Assembly: GCF_003790525.1 (NCBI RefSeq)
Contig: NZ_CP033635.1
From: Escherichia coli
GTDB lineage: Bacteria; Pseudomonadota; Gammaproteobacteria; Enterobacterales; Enterobacteriaceae
DNA: 64,000 nucleotides
Reading direction: 5' to 3' (one strand)
How positions within the stretch are numbered: the stretch's first letter is position 1; every line of letters begins with the position of its first letter. The notes beneath the pieces are model-generated. The model was not told the origin of the DNA and made no database searches. It saw only the letters and a list, made by a program, of their open reading frames with translations. Position numbers and translations under genes: made by a program. Below, piece by piece: positions 30,197 through 39,542 of the stretch.

Positions 30197-30958
30197 TCAA
30201 ATAGCTAAAGCACTCATCGTGTTGTCCGTGTTCATACCGGTGTGCCTTTGACAACGGTACTCCTTCGAAACTCTCTTCGGACTGTTGCCGAAATGTTTGC
30301 GGAACGCATAAATAAAATAAGATGTACTCGCATAACCACATTGTTCGGCAATTTTATTGACTGAACCTTCTACGCGTATCAAATTTTTTGCGTGCTGCAT
30401 TCTGGCATCTAAAAGAATCTGTGAGAATGTCGTTTGCTCTTGCTTTAGTTTTTTCTTCAACAGGCTTTCACTGATGTACAGGCAGTCACAAATATCTTTC
30501 AGCTTCCATGGGTGCGCCAGCTTCATGTTGACAATATTTCTCACTTTCCCGGAAACGGATAGCACACCGTTAGTTAATAGTGTAATGAAACCTTTGCATG
30601 CGGCAAAAATAGACAGGCAAGAAAAAAGCAAAAGTTCTGAAAAGTTATGATGATTGCGTTCTTCCGAGTTGAGATAAGCAATCATTTCATTAAGCAATCC
30701 CGTCGGTACATTTGAAGCACGTAAAAACTTCGCAGGAACAGGCACCGTCACTGTCTGGATGTTAGTGCATTGTAGATATTTTTTAATGGTGTTTTCATTA
30801 AATCCGATTTCTTTGAAATGCCGCTCATAAGGTTCAAAATGCGTACGAACAGCGTTATCTACCATCAGGATCTCGCCGTCAGAGAAGGCGTAATCTTTAT
30901 CTAAAATGTTAGCGTTGAAGGCATGATGAATAAATATAACAGAACAAACGAGCGACAT
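30197..30958 (-). CDS. ydeO: AraC-family acid-resistance regulator YdeO
   Basis: 253-aa ORF MSLVCSVIFIHHAFNANILDKDYAFSDGEILMVD...; C-terminal AraC-type HTH (AEQCGYASTSYFIYAFRKHFGNSPK). Confidence 0.93.
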   Translation of the reverse strand: MSLVCSVIFIHHAFNANILDKDYAFSDGEILMVDNAVRTHFEPYERHFKEIGFNENTIKKYLQCTNIQTVTVPVPAKFLRASNVPTGLLNEMIAYLNSEERNHHNFSELLLFSCLSIFAACKGFITLLTNGVLSVSGKVRNIVNMKLAHPWKLKDICDCLYISESLLKKKLKQEQTTFSQILLDARMQHAKNLIRVEGSVNKIAEQCGYASTSYFIYAFRKHFGNSPKRVSKEYRCQRHTGMNTDNTMSALAI

Positions 30959-31032: not shown

Positions 31033-31230
31033 TCAGTCTTGCAAACTATTGATAATGAAATGTGTAAGATCTCTTGCCATGCGACCCATTTCTGAAATGC
31101 CCTGCTGATCAATTGCCGAAAAAATGGCTATCAACGTAAGTGTCAGCAACAAGACAACCACAATTACAGACATGATTTCTTTATAGTTGTCTCTTTGCAT
31201 GATTTTGTTTTTCACTGTGGTCGCATGCAT
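31033..31230 (-). CDS. safA: Small membrane connector protein SafA (EvgS-to-PhoQ)
   Basis: 65-aa ORF MHATTVKNKIMQRDNYKEIMSVIVVVLLLTLTLIAIFSAI... with a single transmembrane segment; 74 bp upstream of ydeO (safA-ydeO operon arrangement). Confidence 0.88.
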   Translation of the reverse strand: MHATTVKNKIMQRDNYKEIMSVIVVVLLLTLTLIAIFSAIDQQGISEMGRMARDLTHFIINSLQD

Positions 31231-31341
31231 TTCAAATGTGTTTATTTAGCGGATAACGTTAAAAATCGTTAATCAGTATGATTAATATAACAGGCTGGAT
31301 AAAAGAGGAAATAGGACTGGCACTTCAGTACTGAGCGGAGT

Positions 31342-31359
31342 TTCTTACAACTGTAGGCA
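31342..31359. promoter_or_regulatory. EvgA-box-like 18-bp palindrome upstream of safA-ydeO
   Basis: TTCTTACA-AC-TGTAGGCA: left half matches the recalled EvgA consensus TTCPyTACA exactly, right half TGTAGG matches the inverted half for 6 bases; 112 bp upstream of the safA ATG. Confidence 0.55.
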
Positions 31360-31477: not shown

Positions 31478-33757
31478 TTAATTTGATGGCTCTAATTCAA
31501 CAGGAATACTTTTATAGCCAGGAATGCCACTTAATGGATCGTGGTTATCAAGTGTTAGCATGTGATTCGATTCTGGAAAATAGGTCACCAGTGAGCGGTC
31601 AGCCATAGGGTAAATGACCACTTTTAATCTATCCATGCGTCGTGAGCTACGTTTACCGTCTGGCGTGAGTGCAATAAGATTAACTCTTTCGCCGTTTTTT
31701 ACACGGCAAATTTTAGCTTGTTTAGCACTCATAAAGACCACATCTCGTTGACCGAATACACCTCGATAGCGATCATCCATACCATAAATCGTCGTGTTGT
31801 ACTGATCGTGGCTGCGTACTGTCGCCATGACCAGTTTACTGTTAAACGCTGAAGAGGGATCTTCTAACAGCCCTTTGCTGGTAATGAAATTAGCCTTACC
31901 TGACGGCGTCATCCAGCGCCTTTCAGCAGCTGCGTTTATCAGGTGAAAACCACCAGGATGACGGATGCGCTGGTTATAGTCGGCAAACTCTGGCAGCACA
32001 GCTTCAATGTCATTGCGAATGCGATCATAATCTTCCACCAGATACTCCCAGGCTACCACGCTCTGGGGTAGTGCTGCCTGCGCGATTCCCGCGACCACTG
32101 CACACTCTGATTTCAGCATTACACCGGCGGGTTTTAACACACCACGCGAGGCATGAATCATCGACATTGAATCTTCAACGGTTACCGCCTGCGCACCGCT
32201 TTTTTGCATGTCAATCTCGCTACGTCCCAGAACCGGCAGAATATAGCTATGCCGTGCGGTCAGCAGATGAGAGCGGTTAAGCTTAGTGGCTACGTGTACC
32301 GCCAAATCTAATTGCGTTAACGGTACAGCGCTCGCTTCCCGATCTGGCATTGCCAGCGCAAAGTTGCCCCCCATGCAGATCAATGCTCGAGCTTGCCCCG
32401 TACATATTGCTTGCATGCTGGCAATTGCAGCATGTCCAGGTGCATGAGGTGGGGTGAAGCCATAGCGCTCACCCAGGCGATCCAGAAACTCTGCAGACGG
32501 TTTCTCGGTGATACCGACGGTTCGGTCGCCCTGTACATTAGAGTGACCTCGTAGTGGGCAGATACCCGCACCAGGCTTGCCAATGTTACCTTTCATCAAC
32601 AGCAGATTGACCAGTTGCTGTACGTTCTGGGTACCATGTTCGTGCTGAGTGATCCCCATTCCGTAACAGATAATGGTTCGTTCGGCAGCGGCATATGCAT
32701 CAGCAAGTTCGGCGATTTGTGTCTGACTTAGTCCAGATATACGTTCGATATCTTTCCACTCGGAATTGAGCACGTCACGGCGTAGCTCGTCAAAGCCGAC
32801 GGTATGCGTTTGAATAAATTCATCATCCAGCAATGAGGGCCGACCTGCGGCGCTTGCAGCATCATCGCGCTCAATTAACAGGCGCATCATTCCCTTGAGC
32901 AACGCCATATCACCACCAATGCGCACGTTGTAGTAGGCACTGGCCAACTGAGTCTCAGAGTTCGTCAGCATTTCAAACGGGTTTTGCGGTGCGGTAAATC
33001 GCTCCAGGCCACGTTCCTGTAGAGGATTGATGGCGATCATTTTCGCTCCCCGTTTCACTAAAGCGCGCAACGAAGTCAACATGCGAGGGTGGTTTGTACC
33101 AGGGTTATGCCCAATGCAAATGACTAAATCGCATTTCTCAAAGTCTTCCAGCAACACGGTCCCTTTACCTACACCGATACTCGCTGCCAAACCCACACTG
33201 GTCGGTTCATGGCACATGTTGGAGCAGTCGGGGAAGTTATTGCTCCCGTATTCACGGGCAAAAAGCTGATAAAGAAAGGCAGCTTCATTGGAAGTGCGGC
33301 CCGAAGTATAGAATTCAACCTGATTGGGATCACTATAGCTTTGAAGGCGTTCGCCAATTTCGTCGAAAGCTTGTTGCCAGCTTAATGGCTTGTAACAGTC
33401 GCTGACGGCATCATATTTCAAAGGCTGGGTGAGACGCCCCGCAGCCTCAAGCTCGTGATCTCCCCAGGTAAGTAATGATTGAACCGTATTCTCAGCAAAG
33501 AAAGAGGCATTTACCTGCTTATCCGTGACTTCCCAGGCGATTGCTTTTGCGCCGTTTTCACAAATGTCGAATGACGCACTGTGCTTAGGATCTGGCCATG
33601 CACAACCCGGACAGTCAAAGCCCTCTGGCTTATTCATGTCAAACATGGCAATAACATCCTGGCGTATATCCATCTGCTTACGTACTGCATTCGCTACGGA
33701 TTTAACAGCACCCCAACCACCGGCAGCCCCCTGGTAGGATTCAATTTTTTTCTTCAT
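31478..33757 (-). CDS. ydeP: Molybdopterin oxidoreductase (formate-dehydrogenase-like) YdeP, acid resistance
   Basis: 759-aa ORF; N-terminal Cys cluster (CPGCAWPDP ... C), molybdopterin oxidoreductase family. Confidence 0.9.
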
Positions 33758-34005
33758 CTACTTATCCTGTGTCGAAATGAATTATTAGGATTTGAAATAG
33801 CGATGATGCACAGTATATACAAAGGGATTATCGTCAATATGGATATATAAGAGTAGGGGACTACTCTCTTTCTATTTTTAATCTATTATCGTTAAATAAT
33901 AGAATGGTATAAATACGATAAGTTAAGCATCATCTCTCATAGTGTTTAAATTAACATGTTTTTCAATATAAAAAATAAGACTCTGGCGTTAATTGTGCGC
34001 GGATT

Positions 34006-34023
34006 TTCTTACAGGTGTAGGAT
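34006..34023. promoter_or_regulatory. EvgA-box-like 18-bp palindrome upstream of ydeP
   Basis: TTCTTACA-GG-TGTAGGAT, the same half-site arrangement as the safA copy; about 250 bp upstream of the ydeP ATG. Confidence 0.5.
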
Positions 34024-34095
34024 AATAGCCTTCACAAAATAATTATCCGCGCAATTTTCGCGAATGGAGCGCATAGACTAAGGTCAAAATCACAA

Positions 34096-35010
34096 TTATT
34101 CATAGATAAAAGTGACACCAATGACTGACTGGACGGTTCCGGCTGCAACCTTGTTTCCTGTTTGTCCATAGGTTGCGCTTAAACCCAGAGGTACTTTGCT
34201 TTTATTTACTGTCCCCAGGGAGACGTTTTCTCCCGTAGCCAGTATTTTTCCATTACGCATCAGAGAGACACCCACTCCCGATGCTTTTGTTGCATCTGGT
34301 GCTGTGTTAGCAAACACTTGTCTGGCACTGTCAGTGGTAGCACCCGAAAGATAAAATGAGAGCTTTTGTTCACTTGAGCAATATACGCCAAGGGGGATTT
34401 CTGCGCTTCCAGGAAAGTCCGGGAGATTCACATTGACATTACGACTATCAACGGTGCAGCCGCCTGTTGGCATAACAACACTGTTATTTGAAATAATATT
34501 CCACGTAAAATTACGCGGATTTCCGCTTCCTAACGTGGCAATTTTATACATATGAATACGGGCAATAACTTCCCCGGCTTTTATGACAACTCCACCGGCC
34601 GCACCGACTGGGGTAATATAGAGTTTTAACGGTAATGGCATCGGTGTCTTATCACCAATATCTAATACATTAGTATTTGTCGTCAACGGGAAGGGGTAGG
34701 TCACATTATTCCAGTACAGCGATCCTTTATATGACTGTAGAGAGCCTGCGAAAGCTGATCCTTGTACCAGGTTTATATGATCAGTGTCGTACCAGCCGCC
34801 GTAATCATTCCAGCAACTTATATGCTGAGACAAGTCTACAACCAGATTCTGGCCCGGTTGTATTACAGGGTCGAGATTAACATAAACAGAGGTTGTACCT
34901 GCTCCAATACTTGACCCGCCATCGACATTACAACTGAAGGCAAAAACTTTGCCTGCCATTAATAGAAGATAAATACCGAACAGAAGCTTCATACTTATTG
35001 TTTTACCCAT
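34096..35010 (-). CDS. ydeQ: FimH-like two-domain fimbrial tip adhesin (F9/Fml-type), YdeQ
   Basis: 304-aa ORF with signal peptide; strongly FimH-like by recalled motifs ([24 protein letters not shown] ... NLVVDLS ... [13 protein letters not shown] ... C-terminal VIGVTFIYE donor-strand-complemented pilin domain). Confidence 0.9.
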
Positions 35011-35069
35011 GATATATCCTAAGATTAAAAAATTGATTTAAAAAGGAGGCTAAGAAAATCGAATCGACG

Positions 35070-35573
35070 TTATTGCCAGGTGTAGATCACATTGATTAGC
35101 GCCTCGATCGTTCCCTGGCTTGCGTTTCCATTCACCGTGATAGCTCTTGCCTTAAGTGGAAACTGTGCATTACGAGTGATCTCATCAACAATAACCGTTT
35201 TGCTATCACCATTTTTTAACGTCGCATCCTGGTCATCCCTTAGCTCTATCTGAATATTTTCGGCAGTACCTTCATTTTTGTAATAACCCGTATTGTCAGT
35301 TGAACCTGTCACGATTGCCGTCACTGCACTTGTTTCAACCGGACAATCGGTTAATGACAAAGTAATATTGTGCCAGCCTGATGCAGAACCAGGTTGTTGC
35401 AGATTGCGCGTATAAAGATCCCCGAGATTAACGTTAGCTTCTTTGGTTTGAATAGTGCAGGGTTTAGCGACTACCCGACCAATAACAGTGATAGTGACAT
35501 CGGCGGCCTGGAGAGTTGCTGTGAATAACGCGCAAAACGTAGCTAACAGGAACCTCTTGTGAAGTCTTTTCAT
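35070..35573 (-). CDS. ydeR: Fimbrial minor subunit (FimG-like), YdeR
   Basis: 167-aa ORF with signal peptide and pilin-like C-terminus; position between adhesin and ydeS as in type 1 pili. Confidence 0.85.
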   Translation of the reverse strand: MKRLHKRFLLATFCALFTATLQAADVTITVIGRVVAKPCTIQTKEANVNLGDLYTRNLQQPGSASGWHNITLSLTDCPVETSAVTAIVTGSTDNTGYYKNEGTAENIQIELRDDQDATLKNGDSKTVIVDEITRNAQFPLKARAITVNGNASQGTIEALINVIYTWQ

Positions 35574-35585
35574 ATCTGACTCTGA

Positions 35586-36116
35586 TTATTGAAATTCAAG
35601 GGTAAAGGTTGCCGAAGCGCTCACCAGTCCAGGATTGACGGACTTCTGAGTTGACTTCAAACGAGCGGAGTAAGGCAAAATATTGTTCTGTTCTGGTACC
35701 AATGGGATCCACTGCATCCCGGCATGAAGGTCATTCAATTTCACCGGACGCATATTTCCGTCCAGTATTTCTATACCCAAACCGGAGGCCGTATTGCTTC
35801 CTTCATCCAGTTTCAACAGAGTATTATTTTCTGCATCCTCAATACCGTTAAATGCAACCCGAACTCCCGTTGTCCCTTTGCTGCATTCACTTAATGTAAT
35901 CTGAAAAGGGACGGCTGGACTTGTGCTACCGGTCGTTGGAAATTGTCTGGCACTGTTTTTTTGGAGATCTACGGTAAAATTAAGCGAATCCGATGAGACT
36001 GTGCAGCCATAATCGAGAACGCGCCCGCTAATTTTAATAACGCTATCTGCGGATAAAGCAGAATAGGTGGTTAACCCCAGACATAAACCGAGGAAAATAA
36101 CGTTATTGTATTTCAT
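35586..36116 (-). CDS. ydeS: Fimbrial minor subunit (FimF-like), YdeS
   Basis: 176-aa ORF with signal peptide; pilin fold motifs; 12-bp spacing to ydeR. Confidence 0.85.
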   Translation of the reverse strand: MKYNNVIFLGLCLGLTTYSALSADSVIKISGRVLDYGCTVSSDSLNFTVDLQKNSARQFPTTGSTSPAVPFQITLSECSKGTTGVRVAFNGIEDAENNTLLKLDEGSNTASGLGIEILDGNMRPVKLNDLHAGMQWIPLVPEQNNILPYSARLKSTQKSVNPGLVSASATFTLEFQ

Positions 36117-36129
36117 AATCTATTGTTCC

Positions 36130-38781
36130 TTAGCGACAGATTGCTGTCTGCTGGTTCAGCAAGGTTCCAGGAGAGACTGCAGGAAGCTTGTAATCGACAA
36201 TACAGTTTGAGTTTTTATCATTGCCCCATGAAACCTGTAATTTCCCTGACTGTGGAAGTCCAGTCAGATAAACCTGACCATTTTCCGCGACAATGCTGCC
36301 ATTTTTATTCTCTCCGTGAGTGACAATTGCACCGAATGGAACGCTTTTATTACCGTACTTCAACGTCATTAATACTTTCCCGCCGATTTGTGCATTAAAT
36401 GTTGCTCTGGCAATAGCACCGTGAGTTGGGATGACAGTGACTACGGTTTCATCCAGTTCAACATTATCTGCAAGGGAATTCGCGTTAAGAGCGACACGAT
36501 TTTCTCTATATTCTGTCGCAAATGGTAATATGGCATAGCCACGCCAGTCGGTATGAATTCCGGTCTGGTTCTCTATTTTGACATTATCAGCGCCAGGAGC
36601 CTTAACCAGAACCATTGTGTCGCCCAGTGGCTGTCCAAAGGTGATGCCATCAGCATGAGCAATAATGCCACCACTCATTCCGTAATAAATCTGGCTGCTG
36701 TCACCACTCCGACTGTAACCGATATTCGTATTACCGTAAGCTCCACGATAATTAAGAGAACTGTAACCACTGGTGCCAGACGATGTATTACCCCCGTGGG
36801 TGTTACCGACCTGAACACTATAATTCAGGTTATTATCCGGCAGCAGAGTGCCATAAACCCCTGATAGGTTGGTCATGCCGCCTTTCAAATCGTTTGACAT
36901 ACTGTAACTGGCGTTTGAGTTACGAAATGCCGACTGACTGTCTGTACGCATCCAATGACTGAAGGGAACATTAAGCGTAAAAGCAAGTAAATGATCCCGA
37001 TCGTTTTGCCATATATTATTGGAATAGCTGTAATTCAGCGAAGTCGTAATATCACTAAACGGCACATTTAATCCAAATGATATTTGCTGGTCGCTGCGTG
37101 ACGTGTTCCAGTAACTTTGGCGACTGGCACTGAAAAATGTCGTACCGTAATTTCCAAGCTGCTGAGAGATGCTTATTTGTTCCTGACCACGCTTACTGTA
37201 GAACAGATTAAAATAATCAATAAATTGTGTCTGCTCATTGCTGTCTCCGGTAGGAGGCTTGACGGTGTAACCACTCATTCGACTGTAGGCACTGTCGGAT
37301 AAGTTATAAAAACCTTGCGTAGAATAGCGATATCCTGCGACCTGGATATTGGTTCCCGTCTGGTAGAAGGATTTGCTGTAGACGGATTTAATCGATTGCC
37401 CGCTGTGACGGGTGCCATCTGCAAGTGTCGTATTGGCCTGCGTGATATCGAAAGAAAAGGCACCAAAAAGTCCTAAATCTTTACCAATACCAAGGTTGAA
37501 GGCCTGATAATCTTCTGCAATTTGCATTCCGCCATAAGGTGTCCAGTTTCCTTCCAGTCCATGCATCAAGCTACCTTGTATGAACTTGGGGGAGCTTTGC
37601 AGGTTATTTCCACTACGATATTCCCCCATGGCAAGCGCATAACGCGTATATCCAGCACGTTGGAGAACCGGAACAGACGAATAAGGAACATATAATGTCT
37701 GAATACTGCCGTCTGCCTCTTTTATGGTTACTTGCAGATCACCACCATTGGCCGCAGAGTTGATATCATCAATAGTAAAAGGGCCGGGTGGGACAGTAGT
37801 CTGATAAACATCGTATCCATTCTGTTTTACACTCACTTGTGCGGTGCTGCGGGCAATACCATGAATCACCGGAGCGAAACCATGTTGGCTATCGGGCAAC
37901 ATCGCTTCTGTTGAATTTATTTTGAGGCCACGAAAGTTCACACTATCAAAAATATCGCCATCGGTATAACTATCACCTACCGTTAAGCGTGAGCGTAAGG
38001 GAATAATGTCACGTTCAGCCGACGTATTGATATGCTGCCATTTATTGCTGTCAGATGAATTGCTACTCCCACTGTTATAACTCCACGTTGAGTTATCGCG
38101 CAGTCGCCAACTACCAATGTTGATGCCACTCTGTAAATTCAAATATGCATAGTTGGATTTTCCTGCATTATGGTTGCCACGATTATTAATAGAATTACCA
38201 TTAAAACTATAGTTTAGTAGCCCAGCATTTATTCCTTCTTCCCACAGATCCGGAGAAACATAGCCGCGAGCCATTCTGCCAACATAAATTTGCGGAACGG
38301 AGAGTGATAGATGTTGCTGACCAACATTAAACTCAGATGATGCGTCAGCCAAACGATCCCGAAGTGGTGTGCATGCGCTGTTGTCCGACACATGTTTTTC
38401 TGCCGAATGTTCCTTATTGTCTAATAATGCTGATTTTTTTATGCCAAGACTGACAAGAAGGTCTGTACTCAGGCATGGGATGAGATCTGCATTATTATCA
38501 TCTGCAATAAAAGTAATATCCCGACTAGTCATAAATTCGTCGTTCAAATAAATGTCGACCCGATATGTACCAGGTGGTGCCTCGCGTCCCTTAGTAAAGG
38601 CGGATAAATCGACAGATTCAGCAAGATCATTGCTTAAAAACCGTGGATTAAAATAAAACTCTGCGTCAACGGGAAATACCGCAGTTGCTAAGCCAAGGGC
38701 AATGGTAAGCCGTGCAAAGCGAGGCAGTAGTAACACCTGATGCATACGATATGCCTTAAATGCGGCACGAAAGGCTGTCAT
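36130..38781 (-). CDS. ydeT: Outer-membrane fimbrial usher (FimD family), apparently full length
   Basis: 883-aa uninterrupted ORF; FimD-like motifs (FYFNPRFL, GTYRVDIYLN, LLNYSFNGN, C-terminal Cys pair). Start may be the first ATG (38781) or the in-frame ATG 12 codons downstream. In K-12 I recall ydeT as a truncated fragment. Confidence 0.85.
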   Translation of the reverse strand: MTAFRAAFKAYRMHQVLLLPRFARLTIALGLATAVFPVDAEFYFNPRFLSNDLAESVDLSAFTKGREAPPGTYRVDIYLNDEFMTSRDITFIADDNNADLIPCLSTDLLVSLGIKKSALLDNKEHSAEKHVSDNSACTPLRDRLADASSEFNVGQQHLSLSVPQIYVGRMARGYVSPDLWEEGINAGLLNYSFNGNSINNRGNHNAGKSNYAYLNLQSGINIGSWRLRDNSTWSYNSGSSNSSDSNKWQHINTSAERDIIPLRSRLTVGDSYTDGDIFDSVNFRGLKINSTEAMLPDSQHGFAPVIHGIARSTAQVSVKQNGYDVYQTTVPPGPFTIDDINSAANGGDLQVTIKEADGSIQTLYVPYSSVPVLQRAGYTRYALAMGEYRSGNNLQSSPKFIQGSLMHGLEGNWTPYGGMQIAEDYQAFNLGIGKDLGLFGAFSFDITQANTTLADGTRHSGQSIKSVYSKSFYQTGTNIQVAGYRYSTQGFYNLSDSAYSRMSGYTVKPPTGDSNEQTQFIDYFNLFYSKRGQEQISISQQLGNYGTTFFSASRQSYWNTSRSDQQISFGLNVPFSDITTSLNYSYSNNIWQNDRDHLLAFTLNVPFSHWMRTDSQSAFRNSNASYSMSNDLKGGMTNLSGVYGTLLPDNNLNYSVQVGNTHGGNTSSGTSGYSSLNYRGAYGNTNIGYSRSGDSSQIYYGMSGGIIAHADGITFGQPLGDTMVLVKAPGADNVKIENQTGIHTDWRGYAILPFATEYRENRVALNANSLADNVELDETVVTVIPTHGAIARATFNAQIGGKVLMTLKYGNKSVPFGAIVTHGENKNGSIVAENGQVYLTGLPQSGKLQVSWGNDKNSNCIVDYKLPAVSPGTLLNQQTAICR

Positions 38782-38822
38782 TATTAATTCCGATTGAGTT
38801 TATTATTAATTAGGTCACTGGC

Positions 38823-39542
38823 TTACTGCATGGTTGCCTTAATACGCGGAGTTAATGCACCGTAATCATTGATCGTCTGAAAACTGATATCCCCGGTTGC
38901 AGCATGCGGGATATCCACCGATACTTCACCTTTTGGCGGCACCATGGTGTTTGGGAGATTGCTATTTCCTGCTTTCATATTTGTTACGGTAATGAAGTAG
39001 GGCGTTGGATTAATAAGAGTGAGTTTGCTACCGCTGCGACGAAACCGAAGCATTGCTGGCGCTTCTTCAGGTGCCATTGCCAGGTTCGTCGGGCGATAAA
39101 ACATTTTTATGCGGCTAATAATTGCCAGCTGTAATGTATTCTCATTCTTCTGGTCTTTTTCCATAGCAGGAATAGCTTTAACATTAACCCAAAACAGGCT
39201 TTCACGGTCGCCTGGTAACTGATGATTAGTGGCGTTGATTATCCGAAGCGTATTCTCTTTTTTACCTTGCATGGAAAAAAGCGGTGGGGTAATGACAAAC
39301 TGGGTGTCTTTTTGGTCACCTGCATTTTCTATCCATGACTGAATGAGATAGACACTGGCAGGATCATTATTCGTGACAGGCAATAAAACCTGTTTCTGGT
39401 TTGCCGGATAAATTACCCGCGTCGCACCAAGTGCGACAGCTGCGTTGGCAATGGTGCTATGGCAAGCAAAGAGCAATAAAAGTAACACTGTCGCCATAAA
39501 GGAAATAGAGTAGGGGATACGCGTAGTTTGCATCTGATGCAT
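38823..39542 (-). CDS. Periplasmic fimbrial chaperone (FimC/PapD family)
   Basis: 239-aa ORF; FimC-like core (GATRVIYPANQKQ ... TNNDPASVYLIQSWIEN ... ENTLQLAIISRIKMFYRP ... LTLINPTPYFITVT). Start among the first three in-frame ATGs is uncertain. Confidence 0.85.
   Translation of the reverse strand: MHQMQTTRIPYSISFMATVLLLLLFACHSTIANAAVALGATRVIYPANQKQVLLPVTNNDPASVYLIQSWIENAGDQKDTQFVITPPLFSMQGKKENTLRIINATNHQLPGDRESLFWVNVKAIPAMEKDQKNENTLQLAIISRIKMFYRPTNLAMAPEEAPAMLRFRRSGSKLTLINPTPYFITVTNMKAGNSNLPNTMVPPKGEVSVDIPHAATGDISFQTINDYGALTPRIKATMQ

Follow-up and report, generated by a model that had tools for sequence, protein, structure and literature searches.

EvgA is a response regulator of the NarL/FixJ family, and its closest characterised homologue is BvgA. 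In 2003, Masuda and Church reportedly used AlignACE to find an 18-bp repeat in six upstream regions; they are also said to have gel-shifted it with EvgA and to have observed that mutating the ydeP and b1500 repeats lowered both induction and acid resistance. Itou et al. reportedly mapped the transcription starts and the EvgA footprints in 2009. Direct regulation of ydeP by EvgA is reported in three papers (PMC8174306; PMC4283999; PMC11210196), one of which rests on Itou 2009 for this point. Expression of the gene, very low at the basal level, rises strongly when the pH is mildly acidic, and its promoter has become a standard reporter of EvgS/EvgA activity (PMC8174306; PMC4283999). In the cell, ydeP is required for exponential-phase acid resistance without added glutamate (PMC11210196). 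For the homologous regulator, the Pfha promoter of Bordetella has been described: BvgA dimers are loaded along one face of the helix at 22-bp intervals, starting from a high-affinity upstream inverted repeat, until the last dimer abuts a non-consensus -35, and this poor -35 is needed for regulation (PMC7250471).

Here we analysed a stretch of 64,000 nucleotides of E. coli DNA (hereafter, the window), in which ydeO, safA and ydeP lie downstream of the F9/yde fimbrial operon. Gene names were transferred from the RefSeq annotation of a 100% identical stretch, and the features discussed below are collected in Table 1. Judging from its sequence, the inverted repeat at 34006-34023 is very probably the known, already described EvgA operator of the ydeP promoter. 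We take it to be the K-12 repeat that Masuda and Church are said to have gel-shifted and mutated. Our analysis would thus confirm the site in a strain other than K-12, and adds little that is new to a site already known.

Table 1. Features of the ydeO-safA-ydeP locus and of the ydeQ-ydeP spacer in the window.
Feature	Position	Strand	Remarks
ydeO	30197-30958	-	ORF; RefSeq annotation of identical region
safA	31033-31230	-	ORF; RefSeq annotation of identical region
Sister EvgA box, safA-ydeO promoter	31342-31359	.	TGCCTACAGTTGTAAGAA on coding strand; 23.45 bits
ydeP CDS, regulated gene	31478-33757	-	759 aa; ORF list and RefSeq naming
ydeP 5' leader	33758-33940	-	183 nt; AT-rich, ~30-35% GC vs ~50% in coding region
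Putative ydeP transcription start (A)	33940	-	K-12 -178; NC_000913.3 1586664
Extended -10 TGtTAATTT, putative EvgA-dependent core promoter	33948-33956	-	Offsets 50-58 after box
Alternative sigma-70 core promoter TTAACG-16-TATATT	33965-33992	-	Consensus scan
Weak forward half-site-like element GTCTTATT	33974-33981	-	Offsets 25-32; ~-41 to -34
Weak forward half-site-like element TCCGCGCA	33996-34003	-	Offsets 3-10; suggestive only
EvgA box, ydeP	34006-34023	.	-83 to -66 vs putative start; 22.75 bits
Terminator-like hairpin and T-rich tail, ydeQ stop to box	34045-34065	-	Scan-flagged; weak
ydeQ, adhesin, last gene of F9/yde fimbrial operon	34096-35010	-	Upstream of ydeP, same strand

The box and the significance of its motif

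The + strand of the window reads exactly TTCTTACAGGTGTAGGAT at the box, corresponding to ATCCTACA-CC-TGTAAGAA on the coding strand of ydeP. It is an imperfect inverted repeat of 18 bp with an 8-2-8 layout, whose arms are complementary at 6/8 positions. The earlier note had placed a palindrome about 250 bp upstream of ydeP and about 70 bp past the ydeQ stop; it is indeed present, 248 nt from the ydeP ATG in the window (243 nt for its K-12 equivalent) and 72 nt from the ydeQ stop codon. The note had also ascribed to it the architecture of the safA site, and this holds as well: the safA site (TTCTTACAACTGTAGGCA, 111 nt ahead of the safA ATG) likewise matches an 8-2-8 repeat of the TTCYTACANNTGTARGAA type.

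We searched the window with the pattern TTCYTACANNTGTARGAA, allowing up to three mismatches; the underlying consensus is TTCYTACA-NN-TGTARGAA. Only two matches were obtained in the 64 kb, namely the safA site and the ydeP site, the latter with a single mismatch and two TTCYTACA-type half-sites separated by a 2-bp gap. Additionally, a symmetrised weight matrix was trained on six other K-12 EvgA boxes, the ydeP box being left out. With this matrix, which is partly circular in that its training boxes were found with the consensus just given, the ydeP site scores 22.75 bits (safA site, 23.45 bits), whereas the best non-target in the window reaches 11.0 bits. None of 300 first-order Markov sequences of 64 kb attained 22.75 bits, the maximum being 21.2. 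K-12 carries boxes of this form ahead of safA, ydeP, the emrK/evgA divergent region, frc (yfdW), yfdX, whose upstream region carries two, and yegR; across the EvgA-target loci of this strain (~54 kb), boxes occur only upstream of the classic EvgA targets.

Could the repeat be a chance palindrome without a regulatory role? Palindromy alone is uninformative, given that a binomial estimate yields about 270 arms with 6/8 complementarity per 64 kb, and 8-2-8 repeats of this quality are thus expected hundreds of times. Within E. coli proper, moreover, the box shows no extra conservation, with 3/18 variable columns against 6/65 downstream. Nonetheless, the motif score is out of reach of random sequences, and the variation that does exist touches only the spacer, a single outer base and the innermost base of one half-site. 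The promoter architecture described below is common to five other EvgA targets, and direct control of ydeP by EvgA is reported in the literature. We therefore regard a chance origin as extremely improbable, and consider this explanation already effectively refuted. The EvgA box proposed in the earlier note fits by motif score, position and conservation.

Promoter geometry, transcription start and leader

Each of the six EvgA-target promoters has a -10-like hexamer whose first base lies 52-54 nt beyond the box (ydeP TAATTT; safA TATATT; emrK TAAATT; frc CATATT; yfdX TATGAT; yegR TATTAT), and the summed -10 score at this fixed offset was matched by only 3/2000 random-shift controls. The ydeP offset of 53 sits within the 52-54 of the five other targets, which is the outcome of the spacing comparison that the earlier note had proposed. 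At the positions given by a 17-bp spacer, the '-35' is poor in all six promoters and reads ATTTTT at ydeP. The ydeP hexamer itself agrees with the consensus at 3/6 positions only; at ydeP and safA alone, it is preceded by TGt, forming an extended -10, which at ydeP is identical in all 11 aligned sequences (see below) apart from the middle n. When the six promoters are aligned on the box, 12 columns are identical in at least five of them against 2.8 expected (0/2000 controls), bearing in mind that the six are not independent, with ydeP/safA and frc/yfdX being pairwise related. The conserved columns include offsets 9, 10, 12, 13, 19, 26, 27 and 30-32.

Given this fixed distance between box and -10, transcription of ydeP should begin some 65-66 nt beyond the box, corresponding in K-12 to a leader of about 179 nt. 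The ydeP 5' leader probe used in PMC11210196 is defined as -178 to +10 (K-12), and since the gadA and evgA probes of the same study begin at known starts, we infer that -178 represents the mapped ydeP start. The spacing-predicted leader of ~179 nt and the 178-nt leader used in PMC11210196 agree. A search of the start-site tables in the Cappable-seq and SMRT-Cappable-seq supplements returned no ydeP entry and no nearby coordinate. In the window the leader measures 183 nt instead of the 178 nt of K-12, owing to a 5-bp insertion, ATACC (33906-33910, - strand). This indel is shared with 7CC, reads ATACT in G749, 19AR1724 and 536, and is absent from K-12, O157, U1 and E1.

To account for the distance between box and start codon, the earlier note had offered either a long leader or an additional promoter element. 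The long leader is borne out, as far as a putative start allows, by the match between the spacing-based prediction and the -178 leader. Moreover, a long leader is not special to ydeP, because the box-to-ATG distance is similar at frc (251 nt); the other distances are 198 nt at evgL, 173 nt at emrK, 135/97 nt at yfdX, 111 nt at safA and 106 nt at yegR. The leader of ~180 nt is probably explained by a promoter geometry that all EvgA targets share, and not by a promoter hidden close to the ATG. As for the additional element, a candidate does exist between box and ATG, in the form of the alternative sigma-70 promoter of Table 1; only its position departs from what was suggested, as it adjoins the box and is not near the ATG. 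Two candidate core promoters lie downstream of the box.

The same EvgA box could drive this other core promoter, in which case transcription would start at ~33958, the leader would be ~200 nt long and the box would be centred at about -56.5. The pair was found by consensus scan (-35 at 33992-33987, -10 at 33970-33965), lies 18 nt further upstream and looks better than TAATTT with its 3/6 consensus positions. K-12 and most strains read TTGAAG-16-TATATT here, a sequence that genomic SELEX with the sigma-70 holoenzyme lists as a 'constitutive promoter' of the ydeQ-ydeP spacer (Shimada et al., 2014; PMC3946193) and that the same study flags as H-NS-associated/bound. However, the label 'constitutive' means activator-independent (PMC3946193), and the literature leader begins at -178 rather than at about -196. 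In the window, two substitutions have degraded the -35 to TTAACG, while the -10 is intact. Neither the paralogous safA promoter nor the remaining EvgA targets have this pair, although they keep the element at an offset of 52-54. On these grounds (absence from safA and the others, activator independence, a decayed -35 and no match to -178) we rank the alternative promoter second as an EvgA-dependent start, and consider it unlikely to fill that role. A third scan match, TTTATA-17-GATAAT at 33913-33885, falls within the leader itself and has no further support.

We are thus highly confident, on sequence grounds, in a model that combines the box bound by a phosphorylated EvgA dimer, the extended -10 and a start near 33940. 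As part of the acid-sensing EvgS/EvgA system, EvgA would, once phosphorylated, bind as a dimer and with high affinity to the 18-bp repeat, which would sit upstream of an activator-dependent ydeP promoter and be centred at about -74.5 (class I activators, which bind on the RNA polymerase face one or more helical turns ahead of the -35, are centred near -61.5, -71.5 or -81.5). This promoter would consist of the extended -10 without a usable -35, so that bound EvgA might recruit or stabilise RNA polymerase through a contact whose mode we infer. Transcription from near 33940 would then yield a ydeP mRNA with an AT-rich, structured leader of 183 nt.

Structure in this leader is indicated by folding. 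The 186-nt RNA from 33940 folds at -35.4 kcal/mol (z = -2.77), and 1/200 shuffles was as stable. The consensus fold, drawn from eight variants, predicts a conserved structure in which GAUGAUGC (33934-33927) and GCAUCAUC (33809-33802) form an invariant long-range helix of 8 bp. Two hairpins lie at 33905-33880 and 33868-33849, the first of which contains one compensatory pair (A-U to C-G). It further predicts a hairpin in which UUCAUU pairs with the start-codon region and covers the ydeP start codon. An Rfam search of 33600-34200 (E <= 1) matched no family. Control of the leader by CsrA was considered and rejected, since CsrA did not bind it (PMC11210196). An upstream ORF of 27 codons in the leader (33837-33754, - strand) was likewise dismissed as a functional element: it starts with TTG, is not conserved in the divergent Escherichia sequence L006 and has no evident SD. 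This ORF ends in ATGA, overlapping the ydeP start codon, and K-12 has an ATG one codon earlier (ATG+TTG). Finally, an ACA is found at 33768-33770 (- strand), 13 nt before the ydeP AUG, and ydeP is listed among the MazF-processed, polysome-associated mRNAs cleaved at that ACA distance (Sauert et al., 2016). MazF cleavage at this ACA would remove the long ydeP leader.

Conservation and the fimbrial neighbourhood

The spacer between ydeQ and ydeP was aligned for 11 sequences: besides the window and K-12, these were from seven further E. coli lineages, a contig resembling K-12 and L006, with a YdeP that is 96% identical. The 451 bases around the box are 100% identical to SMS-3-5-like genomes, and the stretch around the box was matched in 5326/5426 complete E. 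coli genomes. Variation within the box is limited among the 11 sequences to the spacer dinucleotide 34014/15 (CC, CT or TC), to 34022 and, in L006 only, to 34016. Position 34022, the second base of the distal half-site, is the one outer base at which the boxes of the window (T) and K-12 (G) differ. Position 34016 is the innermost base of the same half-site and changes from A to G in L006, a variant that is also found in the emrK box. The half-site cores CCTAC and TGTAAGAA are invariant throughout the 11 Escherichia sequences. With L006 included, the proportion of variable columns is 22% in the box, 23% from box to start, 31% in the leader and 47% in the ydeQ-proximal segment, so that the box and the box-to-start segment are better conserved than the rest of the spacer. 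Among E. coli proper, the sequences differ too little to set the box apart.

Outside Escherichia, no site above ~7 bits was found within 800 nt upstream of the YdeP homologues covered, namely those of Edwardsiella (84-85% identity), Yersinia rohdei (67%), Raoultella and Tatumella (~56%) and many Burkholderiaceae (~47%). EvgS/EvgA is reported as essentially restricted to E. coli and Shigella, and the absence of the box beyond Escherichia fits this distribution. The similarity between the YdeP of E. coli and that of three Edwardsiella sequences (84-85%) compares with 56-67% for other homologues in the Enterobacterales, and it hints at horizontal transfer, as judged from the sequences. The ydeP gene has a GC content of 60-65% in Edwardsiella and 51% in E. 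coli; the Edwardsiella upstream region has neither an EvgA box nor an AT-rich leader. A 13-kb contig (JARKOR010000108.1) from a bin labelled 'Candidatus Nanosynbacter' encodes a YdeP that is 100% identical to that of the window and carries K-12-type ydeP and safA boxes. In all likelihood the contig stems from E. coli and contaminates the MAG.

Another question regards the relation of the promoter to the fimbrial genes upstream. The F9 (yde/Fml) operon is described as H-NS-silenced at 37 °C and often disrupted. In the window, its genes appear as intact ORFs (34096-39542: ydeQ, ydeR, ydeS, an 883-aa usher and a 239-aa chaperone); the usher is truncated in K-12, and an IS3 interrupts ydeR in SMS-3-5, which otherwise matches the window around the box. 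Scanning and folding revealed no convincing intrinsic terminator (a stable GC-rich hairpin with a U-tract) in the interval from ydeQ to the box. The one terminator-like hairpin flagged there (34045-34065) folds at -7.7 kcal/mol, a stability that shuffled sequences equal (z = +0.25), and a G to A change abolishes it in K-12. Being unstable and absent in K-12, it was rejected as an insulator or intrinsic terminator. ydeP is therefore left without an obvious insulator from the F9 operon. Transcripts might read through from ydeQ into the ydeP promoter when F9 is expressed, and might then interfere with ydeP activation as the earlier note had suggested; the silencing and frequent disruption of F9 weigh on the other side.

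The stretch could, alternatively, act mainly as RNA, as a ydeQ 3'-UTR or read-through structure that steers the end of F9 transcripts or their continuation into ydeP. Indeed, nested perfect inverted repeats of 9 and 8 nt place the box in a loop, with 33990-34004 pairing with 34045-34053 and 34091-34098 at 100% complementarity; the arm furthest out overlaps the stop codon of ydeQ. The 111-nt minus-strand RNA folds at -26.5 kcal/mol (z = -2.66), and two natural C to U substitutions in the 9-nt arms retain G.U pairing on the minus strand only. The lack of a convincing intrinsic terminator ahead of the box would also suit such a role. However, a U-tract adjoining the structure is absent, and the two wobble-compatible changes carry little weight, as they would arise by chance about once in four cases. 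In strain 536, a fimbrial gene is cut short and other sequence has taken the place of everything upstream of ~34052 (a GCGCGG motif, 29 bp before the box), and yet box, promoter and leader are all kept intact. This shows the control region of ydeP to be a module complete in itself. A main role as RNA thus seems very unlikely to us, and would in any case be compatible with EvgA acting on the DNA.

Likeness to other EvgA and NarL/FixJ-family promoters

The 8-2-8 layout recalls the 7-2-7 heptamer pairs of NarL, with which it shares an HTH dimer of the NarL/FixJ family, an inverted repeat and a 2-bp spacer. The NarL half-site, TACYYMT, is unlike that of EvgA. Closer likeness is found among the other EvgA operons (safA-ydeO, emrKY/evgAS, frc = yfdWUVE, yfdX and yegR), which have in common with ydeP the 18-bp 8-2-8 repeat of TTCYTACA half-sites, the distance from box to -10 and the poor -35. 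The ydeP promoter differs from them in that one of its half-sites begins with AT (AG in K-12) instead of TT, and in its leader, since the longest leaders in this group are those of ydeP and frc. At the safA-ydeO promoter, the similarity goes beyond the box. Downstream of the box, 41/70 positions are identical in register (0/2000 shuffles), including TGt and TAnnTT at offsets 50-58, whereas upstream of the box there is no similarity (10/40 positions); the safA leader, at ~47 nt, is also much shorter than the 183 nt of ydeP. Based on this comparison, the ydeP (33936-34023) and safA (31272-31359) promoters look like duplicated, paralogous modules.

Food for comparison with BvgA comes from two weak half-site-like elements between the box and the core promoter. 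Summed over the promoters, a half-site matrix gives its highest forward scores at offsets 3 and 25. None of 1000 controls reaches the level of the six promoters and 9-21/1000 reach that of the four non-paralogous ones, while the individual scores are around zero bits. These offsets are 22 bp apart, and such elements occur in the six EvgA-target promoters. At ydeP the second element, GTCTTATT, is invariant in the 11 aligned sequences and abuts the -35 region. Reverse-oriented secondary half-sites did not rise above controls at the EvgA promoters. Beyond the published 18-bp motif, EvgA promoters may share an arrangement in which the palindrome is followed by two degenerate half-sites, both forward and 22 bp from each other, and then by the -10 at offset 53/54, a possibility that we put forward tentatively and consider somewhat doubtful; the secondary half-site pattern is a lead and not a finding.

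If such a multi-element architecture were true, several EvgA dimers could be loaded cooperatively down to RNA polymerase, in a manner resembling BvgA. The likeness to Pfha would lie in weak elements 22 bp apart, the last of them at about -41 to -34, and in a poor -35. There are differences as well. The EvgA half-site is 8 nt long with a 2-bp gap, and the step from the primary site to the first weak EvgA element is 20 bp instead of 22 bp. Unlike the dimer sites of Pfha, the weak half-sites at EvgA promoters are forward only, with no inverted partner, and are candidates for EvgA occupancy, whereas at Pfha the BvgA dimers extend from the upstream repeat to the -35.
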